A stretch of DNA of 64,000 nt. Source: Candidatus Woesearchaeota archaeon (GTDB taxonomy: Archaea > Nanobdellota > Nanobdellia > SCGC-AAA011-G17 > JACPIM01). A program made the translations under genes and the position numbers. Positions 373 through 57,421 of the stretch are shown here, in pieces (the first letter of the stretch is position 1; the number at the start of each line of letters is the position of its first letter). The DNA is taken from positions 18,454-82,453 of the forward strand of contig CAYSNL010000002.1 in NCBI GenBank assembly GCA_964432435.1, in the 5' to 3' direction. Below the pieces are notes generated by a model. It did not search any database. It was not told where the DNA came from and saw only the letters and a program-made list of their open reading frames with translations.

Positions 373-690
373 TTAGATATTACTGATTTTTGCAGCCAAA
401 ATAAAATCATTTTCTGATAATCCTTTAATTTTATGTGTTGTTAAAATTACTCTTATTTTTGAATAAGAGATGTATAAATCCGGGTGATGCTGTTCTTTTT
501 CTGCTATCCTTGCTATTTTATTTACTGAGGACATAGCCTGCTTGAAATCTTTAAATTTAAATTCTCTAATTATTTTATCATCTTTAAGTTTCCAATCTGG
601 AACTTGTTTTAGATATTCTTGAGCTTGTAGTTTAGTAAATGGTAGAACATTACCTTCGCAAGGTTTGCATCTCCTTTTTAATAACTCCAT
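373..690 (-). CDS. pterin-4a-carbinolamine dehydratase (PCD/DCoH family)
   Basis: 105 aa; 'EKEQHHPDLYISYSKIRVILTTH' matches the E-x-HHP signature of PCD. Confidence 0.7.
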   Translation of the reverse strand: MELLKRRCKPCEGNVLPFTKLQAQEYLKQVPDWKLKDDKIIREFKFKDFKQAMSSVNKIARIAEKEQHHPDLYISYSKIRVILTTHKIKGLSENDFILAAKISNI

Positions 691-2909: not shown

Positions 2910-4390
2910 GTTAAATATTCTGCTGTGACTTTTCTGAAATGGTGTCCCATAATTGCTAGAGTAACTGCATCTGCTAATCTCACTCTATGATGCCTTAATA
3001 CTTTGTTAATATATTTCCAATATTCACTTCTATCCTTATCAAATACACCTTGTATAATTATAGACTTAAAACCTGCCCTAATATCACCCCATGATAAATG
3101 ATCGTAACCAACTTTAGTAGCATTCTTTGCTCTTTCTAAGAAAGTAAGCGCCCTATCGTAAAATTTTCCAGAAGAATATAATCTTTGCATTAACGTTCTA
3201 TAACTTGATACTAATCCATCTTTGTCAAGTTTTGGAACAAAATTTACTGTTCCATCGGTATTATTTCCTGTACCATTATCCAATATCCTGCCTTCACTTT
3301 CCAGTCTTTTGTATAGTCCTGTTCCCGGTATTGCGGTTAATAAACCCAACATTGCCGATGGTATCCCACTTTCTCTAATAAACTTTTCTTGTAAATCTGC
3401 AATATTTGGAGGATCATTATCAAAGCCCATTATAAATCCTGCCATGACTTCTATACCCTTTCTTTGTATTTGTTTTACTTTGTCTAATAGATTGTATCTA
3501 GTATTTTGTGTTTTACGTGTTTCCCTAAGGCTTGCTTCTACAGGTGTTTCTATTCCTATGAAGACTTTTCTGAATCCTGCAGTTACCATTTCTTCTAATA
3601 TATCGTCTGGTAGATTGGCTGATGCTTCTGTGAATAGTTTAAATGGATAGTCTCTATCTCTTTGCCATTTTGTTATTAGTGGGAGATTTTTTCTAATTGC
3701 AGGAAGATTTCCAATAAAGTTATCATCGACTATAAAAACCGAACCTTTCCAACCTGCTTGATAAAGTTGTTCTAACTCTGCTAGAAATCTATTAATTGGC
3801 TTGACTCTTGGGAGTCTACCATAAATCTTAGTTATATCACAAAATTCACAATCAAATGGGCATCCTCTTGAAAATTGAACTGACATTGAACTGTACCTAC
3901 CTAAACCTATTAAGTCTAATTTTGGCAATGGGACATTATCTAAATTTGGTCTTGCCTCTGCCTTATAGTGTTCTCTTGCTGTTCCATTTACTAGGTCTTC
4001 AAGTAAAGTCGGCATTATTGTTTCTGCTTCACCTTCAACTCTGTGGTCTGCTAATTTTGTAGCTGGTAAATGTGTTGATACAAATGGACCACCAAGAATT
4101 GTTTTTTTATTAAATCTTTTAGCTCTTTCAATGTCTTCAACTACTGATGGTTCTTGTACAGTCATAGCACTTATGAAAACAAAATCAGAATTTCTTAGTT
4201 CTTTATCTTTTAATGTTTTTACGTTTTGGTCTATGAGTTTAACTTTCCAATCATCATGAAAGAAACTTGCAATTGTTAGTGCTCCTAGTGGTGGAAAGGC
4301 AGAATCTTTTCCTTGAAAACTAATTGCATGTTTGAAGCTCCAATAGGTAGATGGTATTTCTGGGTATAATATCAAAGCTTTTTTGATCAT
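2906..4390 (-). CDS. B12-binding radical SAM protein (class B radical SAM)
   Basis: N-terminal cobalamin-binding-like domain followed by 'RGCPFDCEFCD' C-x3-C-x2-C radical SAM cluster motif; 494 aa. Confidence 0.75.
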   Translation of the reverse strand: MIKKALILYPEIPSTYWSFKHAISFQGKDSAFPPLGALTIASFFHDDWKVKLIDQNVKTLKDKELRNSDFVFISAMTVQEPSVVEDIERAKRFNKKTILGGPFVSTHLPATKLADHRVEGEAETIMPTLLEDLVNGTAREHYKAEARPNLDNVPLPKLDLIGLGRYSSMSVQFSRGCPFDCEFCDITKIYGRLPRVKPINRFLAELEQLYQAGWKGSVFIVDDNFIGNLPAIRKNLPLITKWQRDRDYPFKLFTEASANLPDDILEEMVTAGFRKVFIGIETPVEASLRETRKTQNTRYNLLDKVKQIQRKGIEVMAGFIMGFDNDPPNIADLQEKFIRESGIPSAMLGLLTAIPGTGLYKRLESEGRILDNGTGNNTDGTVNFVPKLDKDGLVSSYRTLMQRLYSSGKFYDRALTFLERAKNATKVGYDHLSWGDIRAGFKSIIIQGVFDKDRSEYWKYINKVLRHHRVRLADAVTLAIMGHHFRKVTAEYLT

Positions 4391-4494
4391 ATTACTTTTG
4401 TATAAATTTTTTATTTTATAAAGTTTGGCCTTAAATTTTTAAATAAGAATGCTATAGAAAACCTTAAAAGAAGCGTGTTGTTCTTTTATTTTAA

Positions 4495-4671
4495 GCCGGG
4501 ATGGCACAACCTGGTACTGCGCAGGATTGCTAGAACCTTTCTTAGGAAGAAATGTTCACGAAAGAGAGGCAAGGTTGTGATGATCCTGTTTCCGAAAGGA
4601 TATCCGGGTTCAAAAATAAGAACCCAGGTTTTTATTAACCCCTGGATTCATTGAGAGTCCCGGTCCCGGCG
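4495..4671 (+). tRNA. tRNA-Ser (anticodon GCU) interrupted by two introns (canonical 37/38 and T-loop)
   Basis: Perfect 7-bp acceptor stem GCCGGGA(4495-4501)/TCCCGGC(4664-4670), discriminator G. D-arm carries a GG. Anticodon stem CAGGA(4522-4526)/TCCTG(4584-4588) with loop TTGCTA|A. A 50-nt insert (4533-4582) lies between positions 37 and 38. Long variable arm (class II). T-stem CCGGG(4604-4608)/CCCGG(4659-4663), with a ~43-nt insert (4615-4657) inside the TTCAAA|T loop. Confidence 0.55.
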
Positions 4672-4756
4672 TTGTTATTTTTTAGATACACCTAGTGTGT
4701 TCAAGATTTATAATTAATTAAAATTATAACTGAAGGATATACTTTTTTAAGCTATT

Positions 4757-5761
4757 TCACCAAGCTCTTGCTCCATTTTTTAGCTTAAAATACTTGTATA
4801 CACCAAGAGCAAAACCCATTGTTACTATCATTGAAAATACGGGGTAATAAATAAATGCATATGGTATGGCTAGTAAGATATTACCTAACTCATTTAAATT
4901 ATTAATATTCATAGCTGAAAAAAAAGACGTTAGCAATATGTAAAGTAAACTTACTAGCAAAACAATATTTTCCGGTAAATGTGTAAATAAAGAAAAAAAG
5001 AATAGACTACTTATTATGCTATAGGAAAAAAGATATATAAAATAAAAAGGATTTTTTATGAATTGTTTTGGATGTTTCAAGAAACACTGCATCCCGCCAG
5101 AGGCCCACCTTATTTTTTGCTTAAACCAGGCTTTTAAGTTATTAGATTCATAAGTTTCGGCTGGCTCTAAGATTTGATCTAGTTTCCATCCCATTTCTTT
5201 TAAAGATAATGCCATATCCATATCTTCCGTAAGCATATTTTCTTGGAATAAACCGGCTCTTTCTAATAAATCTCTTTTTATAAACATACAACCACCCCAT
5301 AATGATATTGCTTTTATTGATTGGCTTAAGGCCAACATAGCGAACTCCACCCCTATCATCTGTGATATAAATCCTTCATTCTTTACCCTATACCTACAAC
5401 TTACAGCTCCTATGTTGTGTTTTTTTAACCTTGAAATGGAGTTGTTTATCATTTTCTTGTTTACAATGACATCAGAATCCAAAACAAAAATTATTTTTCC
5501 TTTTGTTCTTTTGAATGCTTTGTTTAATGATTTTACTTTACCTAAATTAATTTTATTATTAATAATACTAAATCTATACTTATTTTTTAAATTTTTTAAG
5601 ATATTTAATGTGCTATCTGTACTACGGTCGTTGATTACAAATAATTTAAAGTTAATATTCATACTATAATATAAGTTTCTTATGGTTTCAGCAATGGTAT
5701 TTGAATCATTGTACGTTGGTATTATCACCGAGATTTTTTCTCTAGTTAACTTTTTATTCAT
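4757..5761 (-). CDS. family 2 glycosyltransferase (dolichyl-phosphate sugar transferase-like) with C-terminal TM helices
   Basis: 'ISVIIPTYNDS' GT2 N-terminal motif, 'LDSDV' DxD; hydrophobic C-terminus. Confidence 0.8.
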   Translation of the reverse strand: MNKKLTREKISVIIPTYNDSNTIAETIRNLYYSMNINFKLFVINDRSTDSTLNILKNLKNKYRFSIINNKINLGKVKSLNKAFKRTKGKIIFVLDSDVIVNKKMINNSISRLKKHNIGAVSCRYRVKNEGFISQMIGVEFAMLALSQSIKAISLWGGCMFIKRDLLERAGLFQENMLTEDMDMALSLKEMGWKLDQILEPAETYESNNLKAWFKQKIRWASGGMQCFLKHPKQFIKNPFYFIYLFSYSIISSLFFFSLFTHLPENIVLLVSLLYILLTSFFSAMNINNLNELGNILLAIPYAFIYYPVFSMIVTMGFALGVYKYFKLKNGARAW

Positions 5762-5798
5762 ATTATATCTGCCTTTAGTTATCTGCGTGTTTTTTAAT

Positions 5799-6428
5799 TT
5801 ATAAATCTATTTGAATACTACCGACTTTTTTAAAAAACCAATTACTTAATCTATATGATCCGTAGGTTATAAAAAAAGCAGCAAAAACATCAATACTATA
5901 ATGAAGGTGCATCAATAAGACGGTGGCTGCTAAAATCAGCATTGCAATTAAAAAGAAAACACCTATTTTTTCTTTCCTAAATAATAAAAAACCGAGGAAC
6001 GGAATTGCTGTATGGCCTGAGAAGAAGAAGTCATTATTAAAAACAAGAGGAGTATAATTAAAGGTGAGACTCAAGATTATTGCGTTTGCTGGCGTACCTA
6101 AATGTGTTAATGTTATAAAAAAACTTCTTATTAATACAAGCAGGCTGAATTGGCTAATCATAATGTGAAATTCTTTTATTCTGAATAATAAAGGATAAAG
6201 GAATAAAACCAGGATTACAAAAATATATCCATAAATATAAAGAAAAGATAAATCAATTGTTGGTATATGATCTAATATCAGATCTGAAGCAATAACTACA
6301 TTTGTAGTGTCAACATATCTTCCAGCAATATAATTTAAAATTAAAGCAATTATAAGGAAAATGAATGAAACTAATATAGAAAATTTATTATCCTTGAATT
6401 CTGTTTTCCATTCTTTTATTTTTTTCAT
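5799..6428 (-). CDS. PAP2-superfamily membrane phosphatase-like protein
   Basis: Polytopic membrane protein with 'FSGHTA' and 'HLHYSIDV' blocks resembling PAP2 motifs 2/3; adjacent to GT2 (polyprenyl-phosphate metabolism context). Confidence 0.45.
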   Translation of the reverse strand: MKKIKEWKTEFKDNKFSILVSFIFLIIALILNYIAGRYVDTTNVVIASDLILDHIPTIDLSFLYIYGYIFVILVLFLYPLLFRIKEFHIMISQFSLLVLIRSFFITLTHLGTPANAIILSLTFNYTPLVFNNDFFFSGHTAIPFLGFLLFRKEKIGVFFLIAMLILAATVLLMHLHYSIDVFAAFFITYGSYRLSNWFFKKVGSIQIDL

Positions 6429-30319: not shown

Positions 30320-30583
30320 TCATAAATTGTTTGAAGTTAATTTCAATAATCTTCTTAATTTGGGTTCATCAAAACCCACAACTATATTCCCGTCAATGTC
30401 TATTACTGGAACGCCTTGTTGACCTGATTTTTCAATCATCTCTTGTGCCGCTTTAAAATTTCTTCCCACATCTATCGATTTGAATTCTATCTTGTGTTCT
30501 TTAAAAAATTCTTCGGCCTTATGACACCAAGGACAGGTTTGTGTTCTATAAAGCAATACTTTGTGATCTGTCATTTTATTCAT
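30320..30583 (-). CDS. glutaredoxin/NrdH-like redoxin
   Basis: 'CPWCHKAEEFF' CxxC active site, 'GVPVIDIDG' cis-Pro region; 87 aa. Confidence 0.7.
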   Translation of the reverse strand: MNKMTDHKVLLYRTQTCPWCHKAEEFFKEHKIEFKSIDVGRNFKAAQEMIEKSGQQGVPVIDIDGNIVVGFDEPKLRRLLKLTSNNL

Positions 30584-49925: not shown

Positions 49926-49996
49926 TAATTTTCCCCCCTTTTTAAATAATTGATATTAAATTTTACATTTTCTTTATTTATAAAAAAGTGTTTTAT

Positions 49997-50236
49997 TTAT
50001 TGAGTAGTTAAACCAAGAACTTCTTTTAATTTTTCCCTATCAAAACCCAAAAAGACCTTATCTTCCACTTTGATTACGGGTGTGTTTGATTGTCCTGATA
50101 TTTCCTGCATTTCTTCGAACTTTTCTTTATTTCGTGATACGTCAATTATTTCAAAATTTATATTATTAGATTTAAGTAAATTGCGTATCATATCAGAATA
50201 GATATCGTTTTTTCCAGTATAAATTTTAACTATCAT
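49997..50236 (-). CDS. glutaredoxin/NrdH-fold protein lacking active-site cysteines
   Basis: 79 aa; aligns with 30320..30583 redoxin ('TPVIKVEDKVFLGFDREKLKEVL' vs 'GVPVIDIDGNIVVGFDEPKLRRLL') but CxxC replaced by 'GKNDIYSD'. Confidence 0.45.
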   Translation of the reverse strand: MIVKIYTGKNDIYSDMIRNLLKSNNINFEIIDVSRNKEKFEEMQEISGQSNTPVIKVEDKVFLGFDREKLKEVLGLTTQ

Positions 50237-50249
50237 TTATGAATCCTTT

Positions 50250-51722
50250 TTATATATCTAGCAATTTATCTTGTGTGTATTGTTTGCCTGTTTTTAAAGC
50301 AATTTCTGCCTTTTGTAGTTCTGATCCTAAGTCTAGAGCATGGGAGATCTCTGATAGAACATTGTTATTTGCTAGTTGTGCAATTAATTCTCCGGCTACT
50401 TTTCCTTCATACTCTTTTATTGGTGAACTATCAGTGTTTAAGTGAGTTACTGTAATTTTTTCATTATTAAGTTTTATAATAAAATTTCCTTTTGGATCTT
50501 CTTTAAAATTTACTAAATTCCCCAATGGACTTGCCTTTATTAATTCTTTATCTCTATATTTTTCTATTATGTCTTTTGCATCTGTCCAGTTTTTTTCATA
50601 AATATGTGCACTACCGGAAATAATTGTTAATGTTCCTAGTTTTAGTTGTGTTTCTTTTGAGATTTCTTTTACTATATTGCCCTGTAATCTTCTTAAGGCA
50701 AATGCATTTCTTGGCCAGGCTTCATACATGTCATTACTTCTAATATAGGAGGTCATATGTAATGTATCGTCTTGTACTAGGCAATGTACAAAATTAATGC
50801 ATGGTGGTTCATCTCCTGATGAATCTTTATCATAATTCCAGGTAAAAGCTATTGCGCTTCTTTTATGTGGTTTTTTCTTTAATAGATCAATTATGAATTG
50901 GATTTGATCGACTTTTGTTCCATCTTTTAATTCTGCAGCTCTTAATCTTTGTCCATATGTGTAGTTTACATCCGGAATTTCTAGATTGGTTGTTACTTGA
51001 GGTATGTATCCTTCTAATTCTTCTTTGGTAAATTGAAAATACTCTTCCCATTTGTAATTGTCTGGGTCTTCATCTGAAATTACTGTTGAGATGTTGATTA
51101 ATTCTTTTTGGTCACCGCCATATGAAGAAGCTTTAGTAGCACCAAACCTCATGATATTATAAAGAATTTCCAGCCATGCGCTGCCAGTTGTTCTTTCCCT
51201 TATTTTATGAACTGTTGGGTCTGATGGGAATCTTTCTGGAGCTTCAATTTTATTTTCAGGGAATGTTTCTGGTTCTCCATAACTTGGTTTTTTTTCAAGT
51301 TCTTGTATTTTTACAGATATATCTGAGGGAGTTTTTCCTCTCATATCTATTATTTCTACGTTATTTCTGAAATTATCAATTGCTTCTTTTGGGATCGCTT
51401 TATGTAATTTAGAGTTTTGTATTCCTTTGATACAATGTTCTTCATCTACGCCTTTTTCTTTTAGTGCTAATAATGCCTCACCTGATTTTGCTAGGTCTTG
51501 TCCTGTTATAATTAGATATCTGATATTTTTATTAGCTAAACAATTCCTTATAAGAAAGCTTATTCCTCCATTAAAGTATAGTTGACCTATTGCTGAATAT
51601 AGGTTAGAATCTAAATTATCTGCAATTATCTTTCTAGGACTCCATAAAGTAATTACACCAATATTGGATTCTTGATTTCCTAGGATTACATTCTCTTTTT
51701 CATATAAAGGCCAATCAAACAA
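50250..51722 (-). CDS. thymidylate synthase (ThyA)-like domain with ~190-aa N-terminal and ~100-aa C-terminal extensions
   Basis: Core 'PPCINFVHCLVQDDTLHMTSYIRSNDMYEAWPRNAFAL' matches the ThyA active-site Cys-to-R-S-x-D block; flanking extensions unassigned. Confidence 0.65.
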   Translation of the reverse strand: MFDWPLYEKENVILGNQESNIGVITLWSPRKIIADNLDSNLYSAIGQLYFNGGISFLIRNCLANKNIRYLIITGQDLAKSGEALLALKEKGVDEEHCIKGIQNSKLHKAIPKEAIDNFRNNVEIIDMRGKTPSDISVKIQELEKKPSYGEPETFPENKIEAPERFPSDPTVHKIRERTTGSAWLEILYNIMRFGATKASSYGGDQKELINISTVISDEDPDNYKWEEYFQFTKEELEGYIPQVTTNLEIPDVNYTYGQRLRAAELKDGTKVDQIQFIIDLLKKKPHKRSAIAFTWNYDKDSSGDEPPCINFVHCLVQDDTLHMTSYIRSNDMYEAWPRNAFALRRLQGNIVKEISKETQLKLGTLTIISGSAHIYEKNWTDAKDIIEKYRDKELIKASPLGNLVNFKEDPKGNFIIKLNNEKITVTHLNTDSSPIKEYEGKVAGELIAQLANNNVLSEISHALDLGSELQKAEIALKTGKQYTQDKLLDI

Positions 51723-52084
51723 GATATATTCCCCCTGTTTTTTATAAAGTTAAAACATAGCATTTATAAAAATTACTATTATGGAGATATTATGTTAATA
51801 ACTATGGTTCTTTCTCTTAGTCCATCAAGCTCAACTATTGTGGAGATTGCCTTTGGCCTGGTTCTAACTTATTATTAGAGCAGAAGTTGTATGTTTGTTA
51901 TATAAAAAACAGATTCCTTGTTTAATTTTTGACTTTTTTACTCTTTTTTGTATTTGATTTTTGATGCCAATACATTCTTGTTTTTTTGTTGTATCTATTG
52001 TTAATTCCATTTTGAAATTGATTAAAATTTGTTTTATAAAGGTATTGCAAAAACCTTTTAAATTATAAAAAACAATCATGGTGC

Positions 52085-54898: not shown

Positions 54899-57421
54899 GT
54901 GGTGAATTTTAAAAACAAGTTGGTTTTTTTAACTGTAATCATTATATTAATTTTTGGTTTAATTGTTTTTTTGCCTAAAGAAGTAAGATCTGAAAAAATT
55001 AGTTCTGAGGTAGAAAAAGAGTTAGAAAATAATAAAGAAGTTCCTGTTATAGTAAGGTTCAGTGATTCTAATGTTGGTATTGCAAAGGCCAGTATTAGTT
55101 TTAAATCAGCCAAGGAAGAGTTAAAAAATAAAGGTTTTAAAGAAAAAATAAACTTAGAAAGTTTTAATGCTGTTGCTGGAAATGTGACAGAAGAAGTGTT
55201 AAAAGAATTAAAAGAAAATCCTAATGTTGAAAGCATACAATTTGATCATAGATTTTCAGTTGCTTTAGCAGATTCAACAAATATAATCAATGCTACTTTG
55301 GTGCATACTTTTGTTTTAAAGAATAATATTACTGGACTAGGTTTTGGGATTTGTATTTTAGATACTGGTGTAAATTATAGTCATGTTGATTTTGGTGGTT
55401 GTTTTGGTAATGGATGTAGAATTGTTGATGGATACGATTATATAAACTTAGATAGTGATCCTTATGATGATCATGGTCATGGAACTCATGTTACTGGAAT
55501 TGTTAATAAGATAGTACCTAATGCTAATTTAATACATATCAAGGTTTTGAGTTCTGGTGGTGGTGGTACTGAAAGTGGCATAAGTTCTGGGATAGACTGG
55601 TGTGTTAGTAATAAAACGAAATACAATATAACTGCGATATCAATGAGTATTGGTAGCGATAATACTTTTAGTAATTATTGTGATAGTACTTTTCCAACTT
55701 TAACTGCCGCTATTAATAATGCTATAAAAAATAATATTACTGTTTTTGCTGCAAGTGGTAATAATGGTGTTACAAGTGGTATAACAAGTCCTGCATGCAT
55801 TAAAAATGCCACTTCTGTTGGCGGAACAAATAAAGATGATACTATGGGTAGTTATACTAATAGGAATGATTTATTAGATTTATTAGCTCCAGGTTCTGAT
55901 ATAACATCTACATCTATTACTGGTGGTTATGTTAGTATGAGCGGTACAAGTATGGCAACACCTCATGCTGCGGGGGTAGTTGCTTTATTACAACAATATG
56001 ATTATGAACAAAATAATTCTTATTTAGACCCTTATAAAGTCCAAAGTGTTTTAAATGATACTGGAAGATTGATAGATAGCTGGAGGAGAATTAATATTAA
56101 GAATGCAATAGCTAGTATTGACATTATTTTTCCTGAATTATATTTAGATAAGCCTACAAATGGAACTATTTTTAATTCTATGAATAATATAAGTCTAAAT
56201 TATACAGCTAAAGACAGATTTTTAAATAAAGTTTGGTATAATATAGATTCTTTAAATAATATAAGTTTACTTGGGAATACTTCTTTTTTTCCTTTAGGCG
56301 GAAATCATATATTGACTATATTTGCAAATGATACAAGTGGGAGTACTAATTTTACAAAAATTAGTTTTGGGTTAGATATACCAAGAGTTACTTTAAATAT
56401 CCCTATAAATAATTATAATGCTTTAAATGGAAACTTGATTTTTAATTGTAGTGCATCTGATTTAACTGGGTTGGTTAATGTTAGTTTATTACATAACTTG
56501 ACTGGTCAATGGTTAATAAATCAAACTAAAGGTGTGAATGGGCTGCGAGCCAATGTTTCCTTTAGTCTAAATCTGAGTGGTAATTTAACATTTGGTTGGA
56601 ATTGTATAAGTTATGACACTAGTGGTTTTTTTGCTTTAGATGAAAATAGGACTATAAGAGTTAATTTTAATAGTGTACCTGTCGTAAATTCATTCTTTCC
56701 AAATAAAACGAATGTAACAATAGTCGAACCTCAAAATCAGAGCTTCAATATTAGTTATGGTGATGCAGATGGTGATTTGTTAAGTGTTAAATGGTATCTA
56801 AACAATAATGTTGCGAGTGAGACAGATAATTATACTTTTTATGGAAGTTATTCTAGTAGTAGGAATTATAATGTGACTGTTGTTGTAAATGATAGTTTAA
56901 GTTATAACTCGACTTTTTGGAATTTGACTGTTGAGAATTTGGAGTTTTGTGGTGATAATGTGAAAAATTCCACAGAAGCTTGTGATGGAAGTGATTTTGG
57001 TGGTGATAGTTGTTCTAATAGAGGATTTAATTCTGGTAGTTTAAGTTGTAATAGTGCTTGTTCAAGTATAGATGCTAATGCATGTAAAAATGAGGCTTCT
57101 GGTGGTGGAGGTGGTGGAGGCGGTGGTGGTACTCCTTTACCAACTGAAAAATTAGAACCAGCCCCATTCTTAGAAAGTTCTCCCGGAGAAGAGCTAAAAT
57201 CCGAAAAAGCATCTGAGAATCTAGAAGTTGCTGAAGAACCACAAGAAGAAAAGGTCCCAGAACCTGAGAAGGTTGAAATTATCAAAAAAGAAGGGATTTT
57301 AAATGGTAAATTAAGAAATATAATAATTGGTTCTATTGTTGGATTATTGATATTTTCCTCCTTAATCTTCTTTTTCAGGAAGGAATACATGTTGATTAAA
57401 AGCAAAAATAAGAAAGATTAA
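54899..57421 (+). CDS. large subtilisin-like serine protease (S8) with C-terminal beta-rich domains, poly-Gly linker and TM anchor
   Basis: 'ICILDTGV', 'HGTHVTG', 'GTSMATP' triad; many N-x-[ST] sequons; 'GGGGGGGGGG' then acidic stretch and C-terminal TM. Confidence 0.85.
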   Translation: MVNFKNKLVFLTVIIILIFGLIVFLPKEVRSEKISSEVEKELENNKEVPVIVRFSDSNVGIAKASISFKSAKEELKNKGFKEKINLESFNAVAGNVTEEVLKELKENPNVESIQFDHRFSVALADSTNIINATLVHTFVLKNNITGLGFGICILDTGVNYSHVDFGGCFGNGCRIVDGYDYINLDSDPYDDHGHGTHVTGIVNKIVPNANLIHIKVLSSGGGGTESGISSGIDWCVSNKTKYNITAISMSIGSDNTFSNYCDSTFPTLTAAINNAIKNNITVFAASGNNGVTSGITSPACIKNATSVGGTNKDDTMGSYTNRNDLLDLLAPGSDITSTSITGGYVSMSGTSMATPHAAGVVALLQQYDYEQNNSYLDPYKVQSVLNDTGRLIDSWRRINIKNAIASIDIIFPELYLDKPTNGTIFNSMNNISLNYTAKDRFLNKVWYNIDSLNNISLLGNTSFFPLGGNHILTIFANDTSGSTNFTKISFGLDIPRVTLNIPINNYNALNGNLIFNCSASDLTGLVNVSLLHNLTGQWLINQTKGVNGLRANVSFSLNLSGNLTFGWNCISYDTSGFFALDENRTIRVNFNSVPVVNSFFPNKTNVTIVEPQNQSFNISYGDADGDLLSVKWYLNNNVASETDNYTFYGSYSSSRNYNVTVVVNDSLSYNSTFWNLTVENLEFCGDNVKNSTEACDGSDFGGDSCSNRGFNSGSLSCNSACSSIDANACKNEASGGGGGGGGGGTPLPTEKLEPAPFLESSPGEELKSEKASENLEVAEEPQEEKVPEPEKVEIIKKEGILNGKLRNIIIGSIVGLLIFSSLIFFFRKEYMLIKSKNKKD

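Follow-up and report, generated by a model that had tools for sequence, protein, structure and literature searches.

The functional roles of the residues of canonical thymidylate synthase (TS; E. coli ThyA, PF00303, EC 2.1.1.45) are textbook knowledge. A shorter, methanogen-type TS, represented by the model TIGR03283 (thy_syn_methano) and presumably typified by Methanocaldococcus MJ0757, is a stand-alone protein with a compact core of about 200 aa that ends just after the H-x-Y motif. In protozoa and plants, an N-terminal alpha/beta domain, a linker and TS are joined in one thymidylate-cycle polypeptide, dihydrofolate reductase-thymidylate synthase (DHFR-TS). The cofactor specificity of archaeal ThyA has been called unresolved (PMC9012536, PMC9931769). 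Here, we describe a locus within a 64,000-nucleotide stretch of DNA from a Candidatus Woesearchaeota archaeon (contig CAYSNL010000002.1, positions 18,454 to 82,453; hereafter, the window), where a core of the methanogen type is embedded in a 490-aa protein between a domain resembling the corrinoid protein MtrA and a PterinBD-DUF4346 domain, and where the next gene encodes a glutaredoxin-fold (Grx) protein without cysteines. We consider it probable that the 490-aa open reading frame (ORF), a real and undivided gene, encodes a thymidylate synthase that belongs to an uncharacterised family with three domains.

A preliminary description of the locus, made from the sequence, had recognized a ThyA catalytic core in this protein, and profile searches bear this out: the core matches PF00303 at 2.4e-20 (73.2 bits against a gathering cut-off of 24.3) and TIGR03283 at 2e-41. 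The latter is its best-scoring family, with 141.8-144.6 bits and E-values down to 2.6e-42, while bacterial ThyA models reach about 62 bits. The motifs PCINFVHCLVQDD and YIRSNDMYEAWPRNAFAL of the core were verified in the protein. A Foldseek search with the whole structural model returned TS entries only, with thymidylate synthases at the top, and hhalign pairs the family profile with E. coli ThyA at a probability of 98.4. The core thus shares with canonical ThyA its fold, the Pro-Cys nucleophile and the equivalents of the site that binds deoxyuridine monophosphate (dUMP).

Conservation of the active site was counted in 80 family members, using an E. coli ThyA reference sequence confirmed to be identical to PDB 1AOB. 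Y256 (E. coli Y94) and C308 (C146), the latter within the Pro-Cys motif P307-C308, are present in all 80; R288 (R126) is conserved in 75; and R328 and S329 (R166 and S167), D331 (D169), and H373 and Y375 (H207 and Y209) are conserved in 79. The position of E. coli N177 is N339, which is Asn in 79 members, the remaining one being unreadable (X); Asn at this site indicates that uracil rather than cytosine would be the base of the substrate. The dUMP-site residues are also kept in genomes that have a canonical ThyA as a neighbor. Other parts differ from the canonical enzyme. The His147 position is I309 in the window protein and hydrophobic in all members, conservation is lacking at R127, and residues 1-87 could not be brought into alignment. 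A linker and DUF4346 stand in place of the C-terminal 55 residues, which in canonical ThyA close over the folate.

The claim that the gene encodes a multi-domain fusion is likewise supported, since at least 741 homologues were found in a protein search, nearly all with the same three Pfam domains and a length of 460-500 aa. They are named “thymidylate synthase” or “DUF4346 domain-containing protein” by NCBI, and the closest named relatives of the window protein come from metagenome-assembled genomes (MAGs) labeled Nanoarchaeota or Woesearchaeota (DPANN). A scan of one genome per GTDB species placed relatives in 233 species. Among DPANN, the carriers belong to Woese-, Pace-, Nano-, Aenigmat-, Micr- and Iain-archaeota; carriers in the candidate phyla radiation (CPR, Patescibacteria) span many lineages, including Kerfeld-, Wolfe-, Nealson-, Falkow-, Buchanan- and Abawaca-bacteria; and some Chloroflexia and one Planctomycetota MAG complete the distribution. 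Taxon labels are given as deposited, and some of the third-party annotation (TPA) labels look unreliable. The architecture is therefore already in the databases, yet no study describing it was found: our literature searches returned nothing on the three-domain architecture, on DUF4346/PF14251, or on MtrA linked to thymidylate synthase.

On viral contigs, we found neither the three-domain form nor its MtrA-like or DUF4346 parts, and only stand-alone TS cores at 25-33% identity. The IMG/VR contigs L085-L089 encode such stand-alone TS proteins of 212-296 aa, which match the short archaeal-type core profile at E-values from 1e-41 to 1e-48.

Gene neighborhoods were compared across 82 loci (79 of them distinct), each with up to 8 kb of flanking sequence per side, in which ORFs were called and searched with iterated hidden Markov models (HMMs). 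Thymidylate kinase (Tmk) is encoded in the flanks of 35 of the 82 loci, usually next to the gene, and is fused to the three-domain protein in L047, P0075, P0082 and P0087. Members of the dCTP deaminase/dUTPase family occur in about 31 of the 82, dCMP deaminase in about 30 of the 79, and serine hydroxymethyltransferase (SHMT) and dihydrofolate reductase (DHFR) in 4 of the 79 each. At least one of these genes of the thymidine monophosphate (dTMP) pathway is present in 55 of the 79 loci. In a Woesearchaeota relative with 69% identity (L001), the order is YjbQ, dUTPase, fusion, Tmk and Grx; in L081, dCMP deaminase, the fusion gene and SHMT stand back to back; and in L040, a canonical ThyA and a DHFR-SHMT fusion protein are followed by the three-domain gene, Tmk, a dUTPase on the opposite strand and a FolC-like ligase, a cluster that L066 resembles. 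These neighborhoods are the genomic signature of a thymidylate cycle, and the clustering of folate-type DHFR, SHMT and FolC-like ligase with the gene in some relatives favors a folate-like cofactor. Four other genes of the CPR loci, those for NusG, L11, L1 and GatB, were rejected as functional partners because their recurrence reflects lineage synteny.

The same loci contain further unusual proteins. DHFR (PF00186, N-terminal) and SHMT (PF00464, C-terminal) form a single polypeptide in two Woesearchaeota loci (L040, 6182-7999 (+), 605 aa; L066, 5290-7011 (+), 573 aa), and we know of no described DHFR-SHMT fusion. In L040, the ORF that adjoins the TS gene (4087-5124 (-)) joins a P-loop kinase-like domain (AAA_18) to a dCMP deaminase domain. 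ORFs of comparable length (273-345 aa) that have a dCMP deaminase domain at the C-terminus are found in other loci, among them L013, L082, L063 and L065, and were matched for the deaminase domain alone. Very divergent ThyA-like paralogues lie beside the three-domain gene in L053 (9817-10770 (-), 317 aa) and L031 (486-1694 (+), 402 aa); both give weak PF00303 matches and contain a PCLQR motif, and the L053 copy adjoins a dCMP deaminase.

Based on the retained dUMP-site residues, the dTMP-pathway neighbors, and the finding that the three-domain form was not found on viral contigs, the protein is most likely a true thymidylate synthase and not a hydroxymethylase. In the mechanism that we propose, Cys308 of the middle domain (aa 172-392) would attack C6 of dUMP, and the methylene group would be taken from a methylene-tetrahydropterin, most likely of the folate type and supplied by SHMT. 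The products would be dTMP, which thymidylate kinase would pass on, and a dihydropterin. The TS core sits between the halves of an apparently older module, formed by the MtrA-like and DUF4346 domains, that probably binds or positions the pterin cofactor.

The N-terminal half of this module is related to MtrA, which carries methyl groups on a corrinoid and acts together with a partner that binds pterin (PMC4915002). In the structure of MtrA, His84 coordinates cobalt as its lower axial ligand and is hydrogen-bonded to Glu54, and a meander with the consensus 109-GAIPF(Y/F)xEN is conserved (PMC4915002). The preliminary description had regarded the N-terminal domain as Rossmann-like and unassigned; the fold holds in the AlphaFold2 model, while the domain can now be assigned, as residues 3-145 match PF04208 (MtrA; 56.4 bits against a gathering cut-off of 25) and are followed by a conserved linker of about 26 aa. 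The crystallized MtrA proteins 5LAA and 5L8X match it at E = 1e-11, and its score with the TIGR01111 (MtrA) model is only 48-52 bits against a cut-off of 249. Homology to MtrA and its cytoplasmic homologues (5LAA, 5L8X; PMC4915002) thus extends over about 145 residues of a Rossmann-like fold. Unlike an MtrA encoded in an mtrA-H operon, or a cytoplasmic homologue of 170-180 aa that stands alone, however, the MtrA-like part is internal to a 490-aa protein, and there is no membrane anchor. No Mtr partner genes are found among the annotated neighbors, which in the window are a P-type ATPase, DUF357, UMP kinase and the remnant of YjbQ.

The ligands that define MtrA are absent from this domain. The His84 position falls inside a 2-residue deletion in the window protein, or is aligned to Ser in another alignment, and only 7 of 107 family members have a His anywhere in that segment. 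At the Glu54 position, the window protein has Phe, and all 107 members have Ser, Phe or Asn. The GAIPF-x-EN meander is lost as well; the window protein reads NSKLHKAIP, and only the trailing (E)-I-P is kept in the family. With these ligands absent, the domain is predicted not to be a functional MtrA, and cobalamin binding was rejected on the loss of the His84 and Glu54 positions in the window protein, in the 107 members, and in the module proteins without a TS core described below. The same residues bear on an alternative mechanism, in which the MtrA-like domain would bind a cobamide and the enolate of dUMP would be methylated from methyl-Co(III) without oxidation of the pterin. The domain is a true MtrA homologue by sequence, MtrA carries methyl groups alongside a pterin-binding partner, and the chemistry would parallel that of C5 methyltransferases dependent on S-adenosylmethionine; nevertheless, a family-wide loss of the Glu54 and His84 positions makes this corrinoid-dependent transfer very improbable.

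Other residues of the domain are retained throughout the family. L26/W27, Q47-L48-Y49, G53, R59, G74, D76 and S80 are invariant, and most of them lie at the C-terminal ends of strands 1-3 and in the following loops, including those that carry Glu54 and His84 in MtrA. Conserved polar and aromatic residues remain on these loops of the MtrA-like domain even though the cobalamin ligands are gone, from which we infer that a ligand crevice has been kept for something other than cobalamin.

The C-terminal part, which had been described as an extension of about 100 aa, proved to be a domain in its own right: residues 408-485 correspond to PterinBD-DUF4346 (PF14251), a family whose name implies pterin binding, with 74.7 bits against a cut-off of 29.6 and a match to profile positions 1-86 of 86. 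Its invariant residues are D409, H461 and Q484; P410, G412 and D485 come close to invariance, and N413 is frequent in close homologues. When modeled in isolation, the domain reached a predicted local distance difference test (pLDDT) score of 84. The same domain occupies positions 418-495 of TIGR00284, an archaeal dihydropteroate-synthase-like protein, which matches the window C-domain at 3e-11. DUF4346 is thus C-terminal on a pterin-using enzyme in both cases; the catalytic domain of TIGR00284, unlike that of the window protein, is a barrel of the dihydropteroate synthase type, and no MtrA-like match to its model was detected.

When 1.84 billion representative proteins were searched with the C-domain, 485 clusters were returned; among selected hits, Pfam scans revealed P0205, P0210, P0264, P0257 and P0233, which combine an MtrA-like domain with DUF4346 but have no TS core. 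Both domains, in the same order, are contained in the NCBIfam model NF002128 (“MtrA”, 390 positions), where the N-domain corresponds to profile positions 160-272 and the C-domain to 289-369. The TS-free proteins of this type thus differ from the window protein in having no TS core between the two domains, and they share its lack of cobalamin ligands, since Glu54 and His84 are absent from all those named above. P0233 (273 aa), whose MtrA-like domain is joined directly to DUF4346, has the fusion-family motifs VGIVTLWT, GADKSGSG and DPKGN and lies directly upstream of Tmk on three independent contigs (L101, 872-1693 (+); L102; L103). The existence of TS-free proteins suggests that the TS core was inserted into an older MtrA-like and DUF4346 module, or was excised from it in P0233. 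The high-GC members without TS have an additional C-terminal extension of 100-140 aa, and their genomic context (PadR, MMPL and TetR; FMN_bind, ApbE and RnfD-like) was set aside as a functional clue, being uninformative on the role of the module.

The full-length AlphaFold2 model, built with 107 sequences (mean pLDDT 93.5; predicted TM-score, pTM, 0.79), comprises in order a Rossmann-like N-domain, the conserved proline-rich linker, the TS fold and, at the C-terminus, a unit with three strands and two helices. The cofactor-handling role that we propose for the two flanking domains is suggested by the domain arrangement of the protein, in that the module takes the place of the canonical C-terminal tail, while the N-terminal third of the core, whose counterpart in canonical ThyA makes folate contacts, is too divergent to be aligned. 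A methanogen-type core and folate-contacting segments that are unalignable or replaced would be compatible with a non-folate one-carbon carrier, as suggested in the preliminary description, although the folate-type neighbors noted above favor a folate-like one.

Several observations weigh against the interpretation of the protein as a thymidylate synthase with a cofactor-handling module. With 144.6 bits, the core falls short of the TIGR03283 equivalog cut-off of 174.55, so it appears to be a sister group of that family rather than a member. At the E. coli R127 position, the window protein has Ser (S289), and just 56 of the 80 members have Arg; the segment of E. coli residues 1-87 that hhalign leaves unaligned includes R21, E58, W80 and W83. 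Searches of the 64-kb window with tblastn and HMMs found no Tmk, dUTPase, dCTP deaminase, dCMP deaminase, SHMT or DHFR, and with none of the dTMP-pathway or folate genes in this segment, the folate or tetrahydromethanopterin (H4MPT) status of the organism is undecidable from it. A probable role in cofactor handling is read solely from architecture and conservation; the PDB fold search with the isolated DUF4346 model returned no match below E = 0.09, and the high-GC TS-free module proteins adjoin PadR regulators, with no pterin genes nearby. There is no enzymology for archaeal short ThyA in general (PMC9012536, PMC9931769), nor for the three-domain family. Finally, a second ThyA-family gene lies nearby in 7 loci; it is a canonical ThyA in 4, 3 of which have DHFR beside it, and L010 encodes a stand-alone methanogen-type short TS of 202 aa. 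In loci that also hold a second ThyA-family gene, the fusion could have a distinct role.

One such role would be that of a C5-modifying enzyme, a dUMP hydroxymethylase or similar, which supplies a modified base to DNA, and the preliminary description had suggested a system of this kind. The dTMP supply could already be covered in the 4 loci with canonical ThyA next to the fusion, and the parts around hydride transfer, which correspond to E. coli residues 1-87 and to the C-terminal tail, have diverged or been replaced. Phage Tmk-like kinases phosphorylate hydroxymethyl-dUMP too, which counts in favor of this alternative. Hypermodification systems, however, usually reside on viral contigs, whereas the fusion is found in the cellular genomes of 233 species, and its three-domain form differs in this respect from phage dCMP and dUMP hydroxymethylases, which occur in a viral context with downstream modification genes. 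Phage dCMP hydroxymethylases have Asp at the N177 position, and the Asn found here counts against a dCMP substrate. The ThyX signature motif was not detected in any fetched locus, most loci have no visible second TS, and neither glycosyltransferases nor other hypermodification genes recurred in the neighborhood clustering. Together with the alignable dUMP-site residues and the housekeeping dTMP/dTTP neighbors, these data do not sustain the C5-hydroxymethylation proposal, which we regard as distinctly improbable; a viral origin or hypermodification system was rejected, as the viral contigs have stand-alone TS cores only.

The scarcity of DHFR raises another possibility, namely that the enzyme is self-sufficient, with the MtrA-like and DUF4346 domains acting as a non-homologous dihydropterin reductase or as a permanent pterin holder. 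Such a protein would be a functional analogue of protozoan DHFR-TS, recycling its own cofactor in genomes without DHFR. DHFR-TS is the nearest analogy in layout, the order of alpha/beta domain, linker and TS being the same, and the whole model gives a loose Foldseek alignment to it. Of the 4 loci among 79 with DHFR near the gene, 3 have a canonical ThyA alongside; residues W27, Q47, Y49, R59, D76 and S80 are invariant on the ligand-binding loops of the N-domain; and DUF4346 is shared with the dihydropteroate-synthase-like family. The alignment to DHFR-TS, however, has a TM-score of 0.35 and a root-mean-square deviation of about 22 A, with a true match only over the TS half. The window protein also differs from DHFR-TS in its additional C-terminal domain and in its MtrA-like N-domain, which has no PF00186 match, and neither a DHFR Pfam match nor a glycine-rich dinucleotide motif was found. 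In L078, where no canonical ThyA is nearby, a DHFR gene lies at a distance of 816 nt, so that an ordinary DHFR would seem to serve the fusion at that locus, and the TS-free module proteins are found without redox or pterin genes around them. On balance, a self-sufficient enzyme of this kind seems unlikely. The related and broader idea that the two domains make a self-contained thymidylate-cycle enzyme, either by keeping a scarce, scavenged pterin permanently bound or by re-reducing dihydropterin, is doubtful too. If it were true, it would explain dTMP synthesis in genome-reduced DPANN and CPR organisms that are largely without DHFR and folate synthesis, and it would identify the missing partner and the cofactor logic of the methanogen-type short thymidylate synthases.

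For the reading that we prefer, a thymidylate synthase whose flanking domains may handle the cofactor, there are three implications. The synthesis of dTMP is essential, and in at least 233 species of DPANN, CPR and Chloroflexia it is apparently performed by an unstudied enzyme design. The fusion to a module shared with a dihydropteroate-synthase-like enzyme would provide a testable handle on the cofactor of archaeal short ThyA. The PF04208 or “MtrA” family has been used as a marker of methanogenesis in metagenome surveys (PMC6302309) and, through arCOG03221, in ancestral-state reconstructions (PMC13473441). The family described here indicates that many MtrA-domain matches outside methanogens are TS accessory domains without cobalamin ligands rather than remnants of the Mtr complex.

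The coordinates of the two genes, their domains and the adjoining elements are presented in Table 1.

Table 1. Features of the three-domain thymidylate synthase locus, in window coordinates.
Feature	Position	Strand	Basis
Three-domain protein gene (MtrA-like, short ThyA core, DUF4346), 490 aa	50250..51722, stop codon included	minus	ORF listing, Pfam/NCBIfam domains
MtrA-like alpha/beta domain, aa 1-145	51288..51722	minus	PF04208 3.7e-15
Proline-rich linker, aa 146-171, YGEPExFPE motif, P166 nearly invariant	51210..51287	minus	alignments; block-mean pLDDT 70-89
Short methanogen-type TS core, aa 172-392	50547..51209	minus	TIGR03283, PF00303, Foldseek, hhalign
Codon of the predicted catalytic nucleophile Cys308 (E. 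coli Cys146)	50799..50801	minus	sequence reading and hhalign; Cys in 80/80 members
PterinBD-DUF4346 domain, aa 405-490, three strands then two helices	50253..50510	minus	PF14251 1.1e-20
Cysteine-less glutaredoxin-fold gene, 79 aa	49997..50236	minus	PF00462 2.6e-11
Oligo-T run, possible archaeal terminator of the two-gene unit	49982..49987	minus	10-15 nt past the Grx stop codon; sequence reading
TTTATAAA, TATA-box-like element, putative promoter	51763..51770	minus	about 45 nt upstream of TTG; sequence reading
YjbQ (UPF0047) remnant	51788..52079	minus	PF01894 partial match; tblastn: aa 1-49, stop, aa 113-129 in another frame

The start codon of the 490-aa ORF is TTG, with a GGGGG motif 8 nt upstream of it; the first residue of the homologue P0002 is the same one (MDWPLY). 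A concern raised earlier was that the N-terminal domain might be a separate gene joined through a missed stop codon. The reading frame is continuous, and an identical pair of the 490-aa protein and Grx is found in two independent Logan assemblies, which dispels this concern. Errors of this sort do exist in such MAGs, as illustrated by L006, where the gene is split by a frameshift; in this case, however, the length and the order of domains recur in hundreds of homologues, and the full-length model is confident. An artefact, in which separate genes were joined by a sequencing or assembly error and the adjacency of Grx is coincidental, can hardly be entertained. The split gene of L006 itself, in a Nanoarchaeota MAG (4999-6314 (+)), consists of ORFs of 368 aa and 75 aa and represents either a sequencing error or a pseudogene.

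The stop codon of the 490-aa ORF (50250-50252) is separated by 13 nt from the ATG of the Grx gene (50236). Three features make it probable that the two genes are co-transcribed as a unit: this short gap, the absence of any T-run from it, and the oligo-T run that follows the Grx stop codon. A scan for bacterial-type promoters and terminators gave counts at or near the shuffled background, and its model is not applicable to an archaeon.

The description of the downstream gene as a glutaredoxin-fold protein without CxxC, with GKNDIYSD at the CxxC site, is confirmed. The 79-aa protein scores 44 bits with PF00462 (cut-off 22.9), and its closest family is YruB (TIGR02196), at 54.4 bits and under the cut-off of 88.55. 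It resembles the YruB/NrdH-type glutaredoxins in its size and fold signature, and also in its TP(V) cis-proline region and G-F-D motif, and differs from them in having D-x-Y-S at the site of CxxC. With N-D-I-Y-S-D at the redox site and no cysteine anywhere in the protein, thiol-disulfide chemistry is impossible, and the earlier suggestion that it is redox-inactive holds. All ten homologues found in a collection of 5.8 billion proteins carry ND[AVPI]YSD and are 78-82% identical, which argues that the cysteine-less state is conserved and is not a recent lesion.

A conventional glutaredoxin with a CPWC motif is encoded elsewhere in the window (30320-30583 (-)) and is 36% identical to the cysteine-less copy, which is probably a diverged, non-redox paralogue of it that joined the operon only in the immediate clade of the window organism. 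Among the 82 loci, the cysteine-less form is present in 5, all with at least 67% identity to the window protein, and it normally follows Tmk. It was rejected as a general partner of the family, given these 5 loci and the ten homologues. Its confinement to close relatives indicates an addition to the operon that is particular to this clade, rather than a partner that defines the family.

Upstream of the three-domain gene, the YjbQ remnant is found again in independent assemblies (L083), and the gene order with an intact YjbQ is that of the relative L001. Compared with positions 5082-8409 of L001 (YjbQ, dUTPase, fusion, Tmk and Grx), the segment 49997-52079 of the window is without dUTPase and Tmk. 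An ancestral operon of YjbQ, dUTPase, TS, Tmk and Grx thus appears to have decayed here to a YjbQ remnant, TS and Grx.

The window as a whole has a G+C content of about 29%, and its genes for exosome, proteasome and RNase P subunits and for a Fap7-like kinase are archaeal. Near its start (373-690 (-)), a gene encodes pterin-4a-carbinolamine dehydratase (PF01329, 5.7e-32), a pterin-recycling enzyme, and no other pterin or folate genes are visible in the segment. The gene at 54899-57421 (+) encodes a large secreted protein of the subtilisin-like (S8) type, which contains ten consecutive glycines and has a membrane anchor at its C-terminus; an S8 protease is found at the matching position in L001.

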